From NCBI RefSeq assembly GCF_963921235.1, contig NC_086108.1, forward strand, positions 31,622,001 through 31,686,000: a stretch of 64,000 bases of DNA, in the 5' to 3' direction. Within the stretch, counting starts at the first letter, position 1. Each line of letters starts with the position of its first letter. The notes under the pieces are model-generated. The model did not search any database. It was not told the origin of the DNA and worked only from the letters and a program-made list of their open reading frames with translations. The DNA is from Mobula hypostoma. Lineage: Eukaryota. This document shows, one piece after another, positions 14,521-21,994 of this stretch. The position numbers and the translations under genes were made by a program.

Positions 14521-16046
14521 ACTACTGATCCTATCCTGGAGCCATGCACTGGAACAAACTTGGACCCATGGCGATTTTTCTGTGAAAAAATGTTTGAAGT
14601 TTCATTGGAGCGTGGTGGTGTATTACAAAAGCAGAGAAGAATTAAGCCATAAATTCCCTTTAAGAGATGTGAAAACTGGTCAAAAGCACACTATTGTTAA
14701 TGCTGAAAACCTGACAGCAAACAAAACTTAATAGCAGGGAGCCAGGCTGTGGAGAGAGCAATAAAATTAATATTTAAGCTTGATGACCTTTCAATAAAAT
14801 TGGTAAAAGCTGGAGAAACGTCACATTTTAAGCAAGTTCAGAATCTCTGAATTTGTGAATTGTAGATAGGCTGGCTAACCGTTGCACACTGTAAAGGTCA
14901 TTGGCAACTCCAGAGACTTGGATGACTCAGGGACAGGAATGGTTACTTCAAGTGCCAGGCATTAGTGTCACAGCTGCAGAAAAGGAGGAAGTTATGGAGG
15001 GATTGTCTATGCAGTCTCTGTGGGTGGAAGTTAGGAAGAGGATCTAGAAGGTTATAAGGCTAGCAGAAAGGAGCTTAAGAGTGAAGTTAGGAGAGCCAGA
15101 AGGGGCCATGAGAAGGCCTTGGTGAGCAGGATTAAGGAAACCCCCAAGGTATTCTACAAATATGTGAAGATCAAGAGAATAAGACGTGAGAGAAGAGGAC
15201 CAATCAAGTGTGACAATGGAAAAGTGTGTATGGAGCCGGAGGAGATAGCAGAGGTACTTATGAGTACTTTGCTTCAGTATTCACTACAGAAAAGGATCTT
15301 GGCGATTGTAGGGATGACTTCCAGCAGACTGAAAAGCTTGAGTATGTAGATATTAAGAAAGAGGATGTGCTGGAGCTTTTGGAAAGCATCAAGTTGGATA
15401 AGTTACCGGGACAGGACAAGATGTACCCTAAGCTACTGTGGGAGGCAAGGGAGGAGATTGCTGAGCCTCTGGTGATGAACTTTGTGACAACAATGGGGAC
15501 GGGAGAGGTTCCAGAGGATTGGAGGGTTGTGGATGTTGTTGCCTTATTCAAGAAAGGGAGTAGAGATAGCTCAGGAAATTATAGACCAGTGAGTCTTACT
15601 TCGGTGGTTGGTAAGTTGATGGAGAAGATCCTGAGAGGCAGGATTTATGAACATTTGGAGAGGCATAATATGATTAGGAACAGTCAGCATGGTTTTATCA
15701 AAGGCAGGTCATGCCTTATGAGCCTGATTAAATTTTTTGAGGATGTGACTAAACACATTGATGAAGGTAGAGCAGTAGATGTAGTGCATATGGATTTCAG
15801 CAAGGCATTTGATAAGCTATCCCATGCAAGGCTTATTGAGAAAGTAAGGAGACATAGGATCCAAGGGGACATTGCTTTGTGGATCCAGAACTGGCTTGCC
15901 CACAGAAGGCTAAGAGTGGTTGTAGATGGGTCATATTCTGCATGGAGGTCGGTCACCAGTGGTGTGCCTCAGGGGTCAGTTCTGGAACCCTTACTCTTTG
16001 TGATTTTTATAAATGACCTGGACGTGGAAGTGGAGGAATGGGTTAC

Positions 16047-16275
16047 TGAAGCACCTTCAATTACTCCAAAAGACTGAGGTTTGGTAAAATACTGAAAGGC
16101 TTTTATTCGCTGTACAATATGACCTCCACAGTGAGTGTCTGCCCCCGGAATGAGGGGGAGGGGCAAGTCAAACACCTTTATACAGGACTCTGTGGGAGGA
16201 CCCACAGGGTCAGTCAGCAGAGGTGTGTGTCCAGACAGGTAACCGAGTTACAACATATATACATGGTTTACCACA
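16047..16275 (-). repeat. 3' LTR of Gypsy element
   Basis: 229 bp; 10 substitutions versus 20295-20523 by manual comparison; AATAAA at 16102-16107 minus. Confidence 0.97.
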
Positions 16276-16297
16276 TTCACCCCTCCTTTTTTTTTTA
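16276..16297 (-). promoter_or_regulatory. Polypurine tract
   Basis: Minus strand (A)n-GGAGGGGTGAA directly abuts the 3' LTR. Confidence 0.85.
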
Positions 16298-16347
16298 AAA
16301 AGAGTCCCGCGGGGTGAAGTGACTGACAATATTTACAAGAAGTATAT

Positions 16348-19070
16348 TTACAGGTTAAGTCTATCAGACGGTCGAGTCCGTCGCTGTGATCTACGTAGCA
16401 CCGGTGGTGATTGCACCAGCGACGGCGGTTGTGCTGGCTCCGGCCTGACTTCAGGTGCCAGCACGTTAGGCGTCGGTAATCCCTCGTGCGTGTGCGTCGC
16501 GCCCGGTATGGGAGTGTCGTGTGGTGTCTGTATAGGGTTTGGGGTGCACGGTGTCTCGTAGGTACATACATTGGTGGGTACGGGGTCAATAGTCACCACA
16601 GAGTGTTCAGGGTAGGGGCCCGGTTCTCCTGCGGGCGCCAGGTCGCGGATGGAGACCGTGTCCTCCCGCCCATCAGGTAAAACCACATAGGCTTACTGGG
16701 GGTTCGCATAAAGTAACTGAACCCTCTCGACTATTGGGGAGTATTTATTGCTCCTCGCATGTTTCCGGAGCAGCACTGGCCCCGGGGACGTCAGCCAAGA
16801 TGGTAGGGTGGTTCCACTGGTCGATTTTCTGGGAAAAGAAAAGAGTCGCTCATGAGGGGTGGCATTGGTGGCTGTGCATAACAGGGAGCGGATGGAGTGG
16901 AGTGCCTCGGGAAGAACCTCCTGCCAGCGGGAGACCAGCAGTCCCTTTGACCTGAGGGCTAAGAGTGTGGCTTTCCACACTGTGCCATTCTCCTTCTCTA
17001 CTTGTCCATTCTCCCGGGGATTATAGCTCGTGGTCTGACTAGTTGTGATACCCCTAGCCGGCAGGTATTGGCGCAGCTCATCACTCATAAACGAGGACCC
17101 TCTGACACTGTGGATATAGCATGGGTATCCGAACAGAGTGAAGAGCTTGCGCAGGGCTTTTATAACTGACGTGGTAGTTGTGTCGAGGCAGGGGATGGCG
17201 AAGGGGAACCGCGAGTACTCGTCAATTACGTTAAGAAAGTACACATTGCGGTCGGTGGAGGGAAGGGGGCCCTTAAAGTCAACATTCAGTCACTCAAAGG
17301 GGCAGGTGGCCTTGATGAGTGGTGCCTTTTCGGGTTGGTAGAAATGCGGTTTGCACTCTGCGCAGACTTGGCAGTCCCTGGTCATCATCCTGATCTCCTC
17401 AAGGGAGTAAGGCAGGTTCCAGGCTTTCACGAAGTGGAAAAGCTGGGTGACTCCCGGGTAGCAAAGGTCTACATGTAGGGCGTATAGCCGGTCGATCTGC
17501 GCACTGGTGCATGTTCCCCGGGATAGGGCATCGGAGGGCTCGTTGAGCTTCCCAGGCCTGTACATGATGTCATAGTTGTAGGTGGAGAGTTCGATTCTCC
17601 ACCTCAGAATTTTATCATTTTGGATTTTGCTCCGCTGCTGATTATTAAACATGAATGCGACTGAGCGCTGGTCAGTTAGCAGGGTGAACCTCTTGCCGGC
17701 AAGATAGTACCTCCAGTGCCTTATAGCTTCCACTATGGCCTGGGCCTCTTTCTCTACCGCAGAGTGCCGAATTTCAGGGCCTTGAAGGGTACGGGAGAAG
17801 AACGCCAACGGTCTTCCCGCCTGGTTGAGGGTAGCAGCCAGCGCAAAGTCGGAGGCGTCACTCTCCACTTGGAAGGGAATGGCCTCATCCACCGCATGCA
17901 TTGCTGCTTTGGCAATGTCCCCTTTTATGCGGCTGAAGGCCGCGTGGGCCTCAGCAGAGAGGGGGAATGTGGTGGACTTGACCAGGGGGCGGGCCTTGTC
18001 TGCATAGTTAGAGACCCATTGGGCATAATATGAAAAGAAGCCCAGGCACCTTTTGAGGGCTCTGAGGGTATTGAGAAGAGGGAGTTCCAACAAGGGGCGC
18101 ATACGGTCGGGGTCAGGGCCAATGACTCCATTCTCCACGACACACCCAAGGATAGCAAGTCGGGTGGTCCTAAATACACATTTGTCCTTGTTATAGGTGA
18201 GGTTGAAAGATTTGGCCGCTTGGAGAAATTTTTGGAGGTTGTTGTCGTGATCCTGCTGGTCGTGACCGCAGATGGTGATGTTATCCAGATATGGGAACGT
18301 GGCCTTCAGTTGGCACTGGTCCACCATCCGGTCCATTGCCCTCTGGAAGACAGATACACCATTCGTGACACCAAAGGGGACGCGCAGGAATTGATAAAGC
18401 CCGCTGTCCGCCTCGAAGGCAGTGTAAGGGCGGTCCTCCCGGTGGATGGGGAGCTGATGGTAAGCGGATTTTAGGTCTATGATCGAGTACACCTTGTACT
18501 GTGCTATCTGATTGACCATATCCGCGATGCGGGGTAGAGGGTACGCGCGAGCTGCGTGAACCTATTGATGGTCTGGCTATAGTCCACGACCATCCTATTC
18601 TTCTCCCCGTTCCGAACAACCACCACCTGCGCCCTCCAAGGACTTGTGCTTGCCTCAGTGACCCCCTCCCTGAGCAGCCGCTGCACCTCCGACTTAATGA
18701 AAGCTCTGTCCCCTGCGCTGTACCTCCTGCTTTTAGTTGCCACAGGTTTACAGTCGGGAGTCAGGTTGGCGAACAGCGGTGAGGGAGGGATCCTGAGGGT
18801 GGAGAGGCCGCAAGTGGTTTCGGTAGTGTGGCAGTTGGCATGATGTTGGGTGGGATGTGCGGGTCGGTGTGTGTGTGTGGTCAGTAGCGGGGTACGTGAC
18901 ATATCTCTACAAAACAGGGGATTTATGACAGTAATTGGCGGGAGGAGCCCATCATACTTCATTGTCACGCTTTTCAGGTGGCTCTGGAAGTCCAACCCCA
19001 ACAGCACAGGGGCACACAGTTGAGGCAAGACCAGTAACTTAAAGTCCCGATATTCTGTGCCCTGCACCAC
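16348..19070 (-). pseudogene. pol: Gypsy pol (RT, RNase H, integrase), disrupted by frameshifts and stops
   Basis: ORFs 18504-19070 (SPW...RMVVDY), 17290-18519 (DLKSAYHQ, PFGV.N, YLDNI, ESDAS, EKEA.A, TDQ, C..C), 16693-17244 (IDEYSRFP, YNP..NGQVE), 16348-16686. Confidence 0.93.
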
Positions 19071-20268
19071 TAGTGTCGCTACACAACCCCCCCCGGATGT
19101 CTGTTGTATGTGACCTGGAGGCCATGGTGACCCTCTGACTTACCGGCCGTATCATGAGTCCACAATGCTGCACCGTGGCCGGGTGGATAAAACTCTTCGT
19201 GCTGCCTGTGTCAAACAGACAGCTTGTCCTGTGCCCCTCCACCAGGATGTCCATCATTGACCTTGCGAGCTGGTGGGGAGCGCTTTGGTCAAGGGTCACG
19301 GAAGCCAGGGTGGGGTCGCTGTCTTGGTCCGGCGTGGTGGGGTGCCCCGTGAGCACCCGTTGGTCGTAGGCGGTGGGAGGTGGCACCGACCAAGATGGCC
19401 GCCCCCATGTCTCGCACGTGATGGCGGCGTGCAGGGAAGATGGCGGCCTCCATGTCTCGCACGTGGTGGCAGTGTGCAGGGAAGATGGCGACCCCCACAT
19501 CTCGTACGCGGCGCTGCTCGATCCCGCTCGCGGTTTTGACTTACAGAGCTTGGCGAAGTGGCCCTTCTTTCCGCAGCTGGAGCAGGTAGCTTGTCGGGCC
19601 GGGCAGCGTTTCCGGGGGTGCTTCTCCAGTCCGCAGAAGTAGCACTTCGCGGACTCACGACTGGCGGCAGCCGAGGTCGATCCGCCGGCAGGTTGCGGGG
19701 TCTGCGGCACCCACGAGGCCATCGGGGGATCGCGTGCCTGGAGAGCCTCAGAGTTATGCAGAGTGGCCTCCAATGTATCAGCCAGCTCCATCGCCGAACT
19801 TAGGGTAAGATCGGCTTTTTCCAGCAGCCGCTGGCGCACGTACACTGACCTGGTCCCCGTAACGAAGGCGTCCCTCACTAGGAGTTCTGCATGCTGCGCC
19901 ACCGTCAGCTCCTGGCAATTGCAGGCTCGCACGAGTGTCTGTAGGGCCTGGACGAACTCAGCACTCGATTCCCCGGGGCGTTGTTGCCGTGTTGCTAAAC
20001 GGTGCCGAGCATAGACGCTGTTTATCGGCCGCAGGTATTGTCTTTTGAGTGCGTTCATCGCGCCGTCGTAGTTCAGCTGGTCTCTGATCAGCGAATAGTC
20101 CCGTGGACTGACCCTGGAGAGTAGAACTCTGCGCTTCGCTACGGGGTCGGTCGCTTTAATCTCCTCTAGATACGCTTCGAAGCAGGCCAGCCAGAGTTCG
20201 AAAGCGTTTCCAGCTTCAGGTGTTTGCGGATTGAGGTCTAATTTTTCTGGTCTCAGGGACTGTTCCAT
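19039..20268 (-). CDS. gag: Gypsy gag with protease N-terminus (409 aa)
   Basis: Double zinc knuckle CYFCG..HPRKRCPA...CSSCGKKGHFAKLC (Mag-like) and aspartic protease LFDTGS; ATG 27 nt from the 5' LTR. Confidence 0.9.
   Translation of the reverse strand: MEQSLRPEKLDLNPQTPEAGNAFELWLACFEAYLEEIKATDPVAKRRVLLSRVSPRDYSLIRDQLNYDGAMNALKRQYLRPINSVYARHRLATRQQRPGESSAEFVQALQTLVRACNCQELTVAQHAELLVRDAFVTGTRSVYVRQRLLEKADLTLSSAMELADTLEATLHNSEALQARDPPMASWVPQTPQPAGGSTSAAASRESAKCYFCGLEKHPRKRCPARQATCSSCGKKGHFAKLCKSKPRAGSSSAAYEMWGSPSSLHTATTCETWRPPSSLHAAITCETWGRPSWSVPPPTAYDQRVLTGHPTTPDQDSDPTLASVTLDQSAPHQLARSMMDILVEGHRTSCLFDTGSTKSFIHPATVQHCGLMIRPVSQRVTMASRSHTTDIRGGLCSDTSGAGHRISGL
19392..19512. repeat. 45-bp in-frame tandem repeat (about 2.7 units) in the gag-protease linker
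   Basis: aagatggc...catgtctcgcacgtg.tggc..gtgcaggg repeated; encodes CETW..PSSLH.A.T. Confidence 0.85.
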
Positions 20269-20278
20269 GTTTTAAAAC

Positions 20279-20293
20279 GTACAGCGAATAAAA
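20279..20293 (-). promoter_or_regulatory. Non-tRNA primer-binding-site-like element complementary to own LTR
   Basis: Minus TTTTATTCGCTGTAC, 1 nt after the LTR end, is the perfect reverse complement of LTR segment 20349-20363. Confidence 0.8.
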
Positions 20294-20294
20294 T

Positions 20295-20523
20295 TGAAGC
20301 ACCTTCAATTACTCCAAAAGACTGAGGTTTGGTAAAATACTGAAAGGTTTTTATTCGCTGTACAATACGACCTCCACAGTGAGTGTCTGCCCCCGGTCTG
20401 AGGGGGAGGGGCAAGGTGAACACCTTTATACAGGACTCTGTGGGAGGAGCCACAGGGGCAGTCAGCAGAGGGGTGTGTCCAGACAGGTAACCGAGTTACA
20501 ACATATATACATGGTTTACCACA
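20295..20523 (-). repeat. 5' LTR of Gypsy element
   Basis: TGTGG...TTCA; TATAAA at 20425-20430 and AATAAA at 20350-20355 on minus. Confidence 0.97.
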
Positions 20524-21994
20524 GTTAGTAAATTTGCTGAATTTGGGGGTGTTGTGGATAGTGTTGTGGATAGTGTTGAGGGCTGTCAGAGGTTACAGCG
20601 GGACATCCATAGGATGCAAAACTGGGCTGAGAAGTGGCAGATGGAGTTCAAGCCAAATAAGTGTGAGGTGGTTCATTTTGGTAGGTCAAATATGATGGCA
20701 GAATACAGTATTAACGCTAAGACTCTTGGCAGTGTGGAGGATCAGAGGGATCTTGGGGTCCGAGTCTATAGGACACTCTAAGCTGCCGCTCAGGTTGACT
20801 CTGTTGTTTATAAGGCATACAGTGTATTGGCCTTCATCAATCGTGGGATTGAGTTTAAGAGCCAAGGGGTAATGTTGCAGCTATATAGGACCCTGGTCAG
20901 ACCCCACTTGGAATATTGTGCTCAGTTTTGGTCGCCTCACTACAGGAAGGATGTGGAAACCATAGAAAGGGTGCAGAGGAGATTTACAAGGATGTTGCCT
21001 GGACTAGGGAGCATACCTTATGAGAATAGATTGAGTAAACTTGGCCTTTTCTCCTTGGATCGACGGAGGATGAGCGGTAACCTGATAGAGGTGTACAAGA
21101 TAATGAGAGGCATTGATAGTGTGGATAGTCTGAGGCTTTCTCCCAGGGCTGAAATGGCTAGCAGGAGAGAGCACAGTTTTAAGGTACTTGGAAGTAGGTA
21201 CAGAGGAGATGTCAGGGGTAAGTTTTTTACGCAGAGAGTGGTGAGTGCATGGAATGGGCTGCCAGCAACAGTGGTGGGGGCGGATATGATAGGGCCTTTC
21301 AAGAGACTCCTGGATAAGTACATGGAGCTTAGAAAAATAGAGGACTATAGGTAACCCTAGGTAATTTCTCAGGTAAGGACATGTTCGGCACAGCTTTGTG
21401 GACCGAAGGGCCTGTATTGTGCTGTTACAGGCCTGCAATCCAGATGGAAATGAAACAAGTTGGGTAGGTCTCTCACTAGTACTTTCTGCAATTTCAGAGT
21501 GTTCTCTCAAAGGGCTTTTATGAGCATGATGGACTGTAAAATTCTTTGTCCCTGCCTTTAACCACTCCTTAGGATTTTCTCTTATGTATTTGAACACAAG
21601 GTGTACCCAGATAAAGGAAAAATTGCAATGAACAGTAGTTTCTGAGGATGTAAAGGGAGGAAATGCATTCAGCTGCCCAACTTAGAGAGAGGGAAAAGGT
21701 TGTTCTCTGAGGTTGGAGACTAAACAGTTAGCTTTCAGAGAACAAAATACAGCTTTCATGTATCTTTTTGCAGTAGTGCTGCTGTTAGAATTTAATGATC
21801 AGATTTCAAAAATAGGTAACTGAAAAATGCCACACTATGGTCTGTTTTGCTACCTTCTCTTACGGTCAGTTTATACAATGTCACTAGTTATGAGATTCAA
21901 TTTAGTTCAATGGGGCTGCAGTGCACACAAACTCTGCCTTGCCAAGTCCCAACTACAAACCCCAGCCACTACGGGCTCCACCTCAATACAATAT

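Follow-up and report, generated by a model that had tools for sequence, protein, structure and literature searches.

A candidate self-primer that overlaps the poly(A) signal in a Ty3/gypsy element of the ray Mobula hypostoma and its animal relatives

A Ty3/gypsy retrotransposon of the ray Mobula hypostoma carries, directly behind its 5′ long terminal repeat (LTR), a sequence complementary to a segment of that same LTR. The element (4477 bp, minus strand, 16047-20523; two LTRs and the domain order protease, reverse transcriptase (RT), ribonuclease H (RNase H), integrase) lies in a 64,000-nucleotide (nt) stretch of contig NC_086108.1 (RefSeq assembly GCF_963921235.1, positions 31,622,001 to 31,686,000 of the forward strand), which we refer to as the window and number from its first letter. 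The complementary sequence stands where a primer-binding site (PBS) would be expected; both the complementarity and its position are conserved across a wide lineage of elements, in which the two strands co-vary. The most likely explanation is that a widespread animal gypsy lineage primes reverse transcription from its own RNA in the manner of Tf1 of Schizosaccharomyces pombe, with the poly(A) hexamer as the 3′ end of the primer. We regard the self-priming reading as well supported, and put forward as hypotheses that the same duplex masks the poly(A) signal and that the primer lies at an internal position of the RNA.

The leader complements its own LTR in the geometry of a primer

The features of the LTRs and the leader are as follows:

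20295-20523, minus strand: 5′ LTR, 229 nt, TG...CA, repeat of 16047-16275
20425-20430, minus strand: TATAAA, candidate TATA box, present in 30/30 family copies
20396-20402, minus strand: initiator-like CTCAGAC, a motif match only; its A at 20399 is the candidate start and follows the first T of the TATA box by 31 nt
20349-20363, minus strand: LTR arm and candidate self-primer GTACAGCGAATAAAA, 15-nt perfect complement of 20279-20293
20355-20350, minus strand: AATAAA poly(A) hexamer, inside the LTR arm
20301-20348, minus strand: stem-loop predicted by folding, adjoining the primer 3′ end, with ACCTT (20348-20344) paired to AAGGT (20305-20301); covers the rest of R and U5
20294, minus strand: spacer base A, the single base between the LTR end and the PBS
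20279-20293, minus strand: candidate PBS TTTTATTCGCTGTAC, able to pair without mismatch with 20363-20349 of the 5′ LTR and with 16115-16101 of the 3′ LTR
16047-16275, minus strand: 3′ LTR, 229 nt, with the 15-mer of the LTR arm repeated at 16115-16101 and nothing complementary to it downstream

Only 26 nt (20294-20269) lie between the end of the 5′ LTR at 20295 and the gag ATG at 20268-20266, and no TGG occurs within them, which leaves the leader without a TGG-type tRNA PBS. The candidate PBS begins 1 nt after the CA of the LTR and pairs with an LTR arm whose 3′ end faces U5; a complement of the element's own LTR, placed directly after the 5′ LTR and with the 3′ end of its partner toward U5, is the arrangement that characterizes the self-primed class. 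Allowing for up to two mismatches, the 15-mer matches the window at just three sites, one in each LTR and one in the leader, against a chance expectation of 0.12 matches, and three matches were reached in 0/100 shuffles. Most of this had been proposed in an earlier, sequence-only reading of the window, and we were able to confirm on the minus strand its 26-nt leader free of TGG, the 15-nt complement, the AATAAA and the TATA box at 20425-20430, as well as the pairing of leader and LTR in primer geometry, which is moreover kept with compensatory change in distant relatives (see below).

The minimum-energy fold of the leader RNA includes the 15-bp duplex whether the RNA is taken from 20400 (z = -3.84) or from 20363 (z = -4.0), and the stability of each of the two folds was matched by 0/200 shuffles. 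The LTR segment with its 3′ flank folds no better than shuffled sequence (z = +0.49; 134/200 shuffles as good) and leaves the hexamer unpaired.

The 3.48-Gb host genome gave 2008 first-look candidates for the LTR plus leader, and the best 40 of the 2008, which were scored, are 98-100% identical to the query. The sequence-only reading had staked its case in part on finding the complementarity in other family copies, and 22/30 of these keep all 15 pairs.

The pairing recurs in distant relatives

The best protein matches to the RT-RNase H region come from Mobula (94%), Hypanus (83%), Scyliorhinus (80%) and Narcine (77%), followed at ~60% identity by proteins of a sea anemone, Trichuris and Trichinella (P0002, P0017, P0018, P0074) and by many products of ~4-kb environmental contigs. 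An identity of ~60% between a ray and Trichuris, Trichinella or a sea anemone could reflect strong constraint or horizontal spread of the lineage. Metagenome contigs were scanned with an alignment of the homologous proteins, yielding 80 loci (L031-L110) with 42-62% RT identity; tblastn placed the N-terminus of Gag in 43/80, and the 40 of these with at least 110 nt upstream form the judgeable set. In each we compared the 80 nt preceding the ATG with the 450 nt upstream and took the longest stretch of perfect complementarity, constraining neither the sequence nor its exact position.

A perfect complement of 13-19 nt was present in 33/40 judgeable loci, and the other seven gave 6-11 nt; control windows of equal size within gag reached no more than 7-11 nt. 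The arms are nevertheless recognizable in six of these seven loci, where they contain one mismatch or a deletion or form a duplex of 10 nt. The positive loci share one architecture, in which the CA of the LTR is followed by a single base (mostly A) and then by an arm starting TTTA or TTTT, and this PBS arm pairs with an LTR segment that ends in ...TAAA and lies 24-79 nt upstream. BLAST aligned a pair of LTRs in 24 loci, the window copy included; the 5′ LTR ends 0-2 nt before the arm in 16/24, and the alignments of the other 8/24 end elsewhere. A generic scan added L034, L085 and L090, and showed L070 to hold an 11-nt version. The LTR of L070, seen in its last 220 and first 200 bases, is only ~80 nt long, which is very short for a promoter-bearing repeat.

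Several of the relatives' contigs (L038, L060, L070, L085, L088, L089, L090), ~4 kb in length apart from one of 5.7 kb, are circularly permuted or contain a junction that runs from pol through the polypurine tract, one LTR and the PBS into gag, a pattern to be expected from one-LTR circles, tandem arrays or collapsed assemblies. Fifty of the 80 loci are shorter than 7 kb, and their terminal repeats are collapsed or permuted LTR junctions only. At the ends of the contigs, a stretch of poly(A) or poly(T) was seen in 0/80 loci. Contigs that start 2 to 40 nt before the arm were considered as possible RNA starts and rejected, as they cannot be read in this way.

Leader and LTR change together

Co-variation was examined in 27 distinct elements, the window element and 26 relatives, with pairs numbered from the primer 3′ end. 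Positions 1-13 are Watson-Crick in 27/27, with up to four pair types per position, and positions 14, 15 and 16 pair in 21/27, 20/27 and 19/27, though the elements were selected for at least 12 perfect Watson-Crick pairs, so that the absence of G-U pairs and the high paired percentage are partly built in. This selection does not affect the shuffles or the comparison of each PBS with its own and with other LTRs. Against its own LTR a PBS pairs at 12/12 positions, against those of other elements at a mean of 7.6, and at positions 7-12, which lie outside the hexamer, full pairing occurs in only 8/702 cross-combinations. The LTR-side arm follows only a loose lineage consensus, TTTAGTNGAWTAAA, and the PBS varies among relatives at 10 of the first 13 positions, always matching its own LTR, which means that a conserved host tRNA cannot explain it.

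For the covariation count we used a MAFFT alignment of 26/27 elements, L085 having been dropped with a misaligned 5′ arm. In these 26 sequences 95.2% of cells are paired, compared with 67.4% in shuffles, and both sides change in 14/16 pairs (99 cells). The covariation score of 0.70, vs 0.16, was reached by 0/500 shuffles, and registers slid by 1-3 columns are 33-47% paired. Double changes also separate close relatives, such as T:A in L035 vs G:C in L041, or C:G in L033 vs T:A in L036. Compensatory changes between leader and LTR were what the sequence-only reading had proposed to look for in relatives, and they are present in most pairs of the duplex. Conservation together with compensatory change in distant relatives strongly supports self-priming.

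A model for self-priming

We consider it probable that the lineage has dispensed with tRNA primers and starts its minus-strand DNA from its own RNA, in a Tf1-like manner. In the window copy, the R segment of the 5′ LTR at 20363-20349, whose 3′ half is AAUAAA, would first fold back onto 20293-20279. The RNase H of the element would then cut the RNA at the 3′ end of the duplex, a cleavage and a nuclease that we infer by analogy with Tf1. The arm is directly followed by a conserved RCC, and a second stem opens with the base next to the primer in 24/27 constrained folds; the cut would fall between ...UAAA and RCC, where this stem begins. From the new 3′ OH, synthesis would run across the spacer base, through U5 and on into what remains of R, giving a strong-stop DNA of ~55 nt in the window copy, and of 25-80 nt across elements, before transfer to the 3′ R. 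Finally, since the plus strand copies the primer, the PBS would be rewritten from the LTR arm in each cycle, and re-templating of this kind would keep the arms strictly Watson-Crick.

The duplex and the poly(A) hexamer

The LTR arm ends in AATAAA in 8/27 elements, in ATTAAA in another 8/27 and in GATAAA in 3/27, so that a hexamer of the first two kinds lies within the arm in 16/27 distinct elements, or 19 when GATAAA is counted. The remaining 8/27 have other endings (GTTAAA-type in five, TTTAAA in one and no such word in two). The overlap of the paired LTR segment with a poly(A) hexamer, which the sequence-only reading had described for the window copy, is therefore real and recurrent. In one subgroup (L033, L036, L038, L051) the arm ends in GTTAAA. 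At least two of these, L033 and L051, contain an AATAAA of their own between the arms, 25-30 nt beyond the LTR arm, where L036 has an AATAAG.

Although primer and poly(A) signal often overlap, 8/27 elements keep the duplex without a recognized hexamer, and poly(A) control is therefore not what maintains the pairing. The predicted folds suggest that the duplex may mask the hexamer in the 5′ copy only, and the same eight arms show that masking is no general requirement. Of the joint proposal of self-priming and masking made in the sequence-only reading, the pairing has held up, as conserved and co-varying, and masking stays a prediction from folding.

These observations also bear on the alternative that survives best, which we nevertheless hold to be unlikely, namely that the duplex is only a regulatory or packaging RNA structure (for 5′ poly(A) suppression, dimerisation, packaging or control of gag translation) and that the element uses some other primer. 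In HIV-1, a hairpin is known to suppress a 5′ poly(A) site, and retroelements have other means as well of keeping such a signal silent in the 5′ R. As with the HIV-1 poly(A) hairpin, the AAUAAA of the 5′ R is base-paired and the 3′ copy free in the predicted fold; unlike it, the partner strand would be the PBS, 55 nt downstream, and the structure no local hairpin. A structural role would fit the placement of the hexamer inside the duplex in the 16 elements (19 with GATAAA), and folds in which the hexamer is paired in its 5′ setting and free in its 3′ setting, but it would not account for the eight elements that keep the duplex without a recognized hexamer, nor for L033 and L051, in which AATAAA lies outside the duplex. 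It would also require another primer site, and none is visible in a 26-nt leader without TGG, whereas the arm lies exactly at the PBS position, with the 3′ end of its partner toward U5, in every relative that has the pairing.

The start of transcription and points against self-priming

Besides the pairing that selection builds into the co-variation set, several observations weigh against the self-priming reading. No such pairing was found in L065 among the 40 judged loci. The imperfect family copies (8/30) carry one-sided changes, mostly at CpG, and show no co-variation within the family, a comparison that has no statistical power because the 30 copies are 98-100% alike. The remaining points concern where the RNA begins. 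The initiator, which reads CTCAGTC in 29/30 family copies and CTCAGAC in the window copy, stands at the textbook spacing of 31 nt from the TATA box, and together the two motifs would predict a start 36 nt upstream of the primer, unlike in Tf1. A primer with a 36-nt 5′ tail would in turn be expected to leave a non-homologous 3′ tail on plus-strand strong-stop DNA, a difficulty that does not arise for Tf1. L070, finally, has 39 nt before the arm, and thus little room for a promoter upstream of it.

Under the standard scheme of reverse transcription, the plus-strand tail favours a start at or near the 5′ end of the arm, ~20363, as in Tf1; alternatively, the RNA may be cut a second time. A GC-rich block lies between the TATAAA and the arm, and a search of the 110 nt upstream of the arm gave no TATA motif in any of the relatives. 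The RNA would accordingly start at or near 20363 if the logic of Tf1 holds and at ~20399 if the TATA box and initiator are used. The latter start is plausible and would put the primer at +37 to +51 of the RNA, in which case the ray family may even excise its primer from inside the RNA, a priming mode not described for Tf1.

The start site is also central to a second alternative, which we rate as improbable, in which the primer comes from the 3′ LTR copy of the arm, on the same or a co-packaged RNA, and transcription starts downstream of the arm, so that arm and hexamer belong to U3. This arrangement would abolish the 5′ poly(A) problem and would suit relatives without a conserved TATA upstream of the arm, including L070 with its 39 nt before the arm and a TATA-like TTTATAT 12-18 nt before it, but the ray family has its TATAAA and initiator upstream of the arm. 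In the standard scheme, moreover, cleavage of the 3′ end at the hexamer would leave R and U3 on different pieces of the template and call for a second RNA, and the problem of plus-strand run-on would become worse. Priming by a host RNA, either a tRNA fragment or another small RNA, with the LTR complement incidental, is the least credible of the alternatives, for although a conserved host RNA could in principle impose the loose arm consensus, it would give the LTR no reason to co-vary with a PBS that changes between relatives in step with it, and no Rfam family, tRNA included, matches the element.

The element, its coding capacity and its copies

The rest of the element is organized as follows:

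20524-20528 and 16046-16042, minus strand: candidate target-site duplication, upstream CTAAC and downstream GTAAC, 4/5 bases matching
19039-20268, minus strand: gag and the start of protease, an open frame beginning with the ATG at 20268-20266, with two CCHC knuckles (from reading of the open frame)
16348-19139, minus strand: pol, comprising the rest of protease, RT, RNase H and integrase (Pfam RVT_1, RT_RNaseH, rve)
16276-16287, minus strand: polypurine tract AGGAGGGGTGAA, directly adjoining the 3′ LTR

Two TG...CA LTRs (direct repeats of 229 nt each, 96% identical to each other), a polypurine tract before the 3′ LTR and the order protease, RT, RNase H, integrase identify the element as Ty3/gypsy, and the best solved relative of its RT is that of Ty3 (E = 2.5e-43). 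In the relatives, the polypurine tract at the same position reads GGGGAGAA. Matches to aspartyl protease in Pfam fall below the curated cut-offs. In the window copy the pol frame shifts near 19040-19139 and again near 18504-18561, and it is interrupted by in-frame stops at 17290-17292 and 16693-16695. The window element is thus a decayed copy of a very abundant, compact (4.5 kb), chromodomain-less Ty3/gypsy family, for whose RT the host genome gave 35170 first-look candidates, some copies having open frames of >1300 amino acids (aa). A search of the host genome for diverged families, made with protein P0007, brought up nothing but this family (77-78% identical to the query).

The active-site box of the RT (18280-18291, minus strand) reads YLDN where Ty3 has YLDD, as aligned to 7q5b and 4ol8. 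In an alignment of this box from 15 relatives D93 is invariant and N94 nearly so, and it seems from these sequences that the second aspartate of YXDD is replaced by asparagine throughout this evidently active lineage. The element is inserted in the RT gene of a long interspersed nuclear element (LINE), whose open frames lie at 15214-16077 and 20491-20781 on the plus strand; contigs from four public runs span LTR ends and empty LINE sites, as would be expected of DNA, and those that connect the two LINE halves skip 4496-4545 nt and so represent LINE copies without the insertion. ARAGORN called a 91-nt tRNA-Gly(CCC) at 17518-17608 on the plus strand, opposite the RT gene, but Rfam finds no tRNA there and the call is probably false.

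Relation to known self-priming elements

In Tf1 and Tf2, a self-primer in R pairs with a PBS just after the LTR and is cleaved from the mRNA by the element's own RT (PMC10085805, PMC5341516), and the primer of Tf1 is flanked by further duplexes (PMC10085805). Self-priming is described as common among Tf1/sushi chromoviruses and has been predicted for the plant elements Tcn1 (gypsy) and TAR (copia) (PMC6317226, PMC10085805, PMC6934838). The window element resembles Tf1, Tf2 and the Tf1/sushi group in lacking a tRNA PBS and in having post-LTR bases that complement its own LTR (PMC10085805, PMC5341516, PMC6317226). As in Tf1, a stem is predicted to flank the primer duplex (in the 24/27 constrained folds), one flanking stem having been examined here vs the three-duplex 'pretzel' of Tf1. 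It differs from Tf1 in the length of the duplex (13-19 bp here vs 11), in a primer 3′ end that is usually the poly(A) hexamer, and in the relation of primer to RNA start, the Tf1 primer being the first 11 nt of the RNA and the predicted start of the ray family lying 36 nt upstream of the primer.

The C-terminal frame of the window element gave no Pfam match, and the chromodomain PF00385 was found in 0/120 of the homologues listed and in 0/6 full-length relatives at E ≤ 0.01. This supports the view of the sequence-only reading that the element is not chromoviral, and by its domain content the lineage would fall outside the Tf1/sushi group, the known seat of gypsy self-priming. Its compact form, short LTRs and, in relatives, a single gag-pol frame (products of 1100-1450 aa) are shared with the Mag lineage (Mag, SURL, Jule), to which the sequence-only reading had likened the Gag. 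Mag A LTRs are described as carrying an evident AATAAA and lacking a conserved TATA (PMC3601003), and the present lineage is like them in both respects. Mosquito elements of the Mag lineage are reported to have a PBS complementary to tRNA-Leu, tRNA-Ser or tRNA-Arg (PMC3286476), unlike the window element with its lack of a TGG-type tRNA PBS. As here, self-priming in Tcn1 and TAR was predicted from PBS-LTR complementarity alone; those elements belong to other lineages or another superfamily, and the accessible part of the source reports no link to a poly(A) hexamer (PMC6317226).

Our literature search, which left most subscription journals uncovered, turned up no account of a non-chromoviral animal gypsy lineage that primes itself, nor of a self-primer containing a poly(A) signal. 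Tentatively, and with more doubt than we attach to self-priming itself, we suggest that a pan-metazoan chromodomain-less lineage, spanning rays, sharks, nematodes, cnidarians and environmental contigs, may use a self-primer that ends in the poly(A) hexamer. The hexamer would then serve both as the 3′ polyadenylation signal and as the 5′ primer terminus or cleavage mark, the duplex would silence the 5′ copy, and the PBS would be re-templated from the LTR each cycle, so that the arms co-evolve without wobble intermediates.

If self-priming holds for this large chromodomain-less animal lineage, tRNA-independent priming would have arisen or spread more widely than has been thought, and annotation pipelines that seek tRNA PBSs would overlook or misread animal elements of a very abundant class. 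The frequent fusion of primer and hexamer would then provide a compact and testable case of a retroelement distinguishing the R at its 5′ end from that at its 3′ end.

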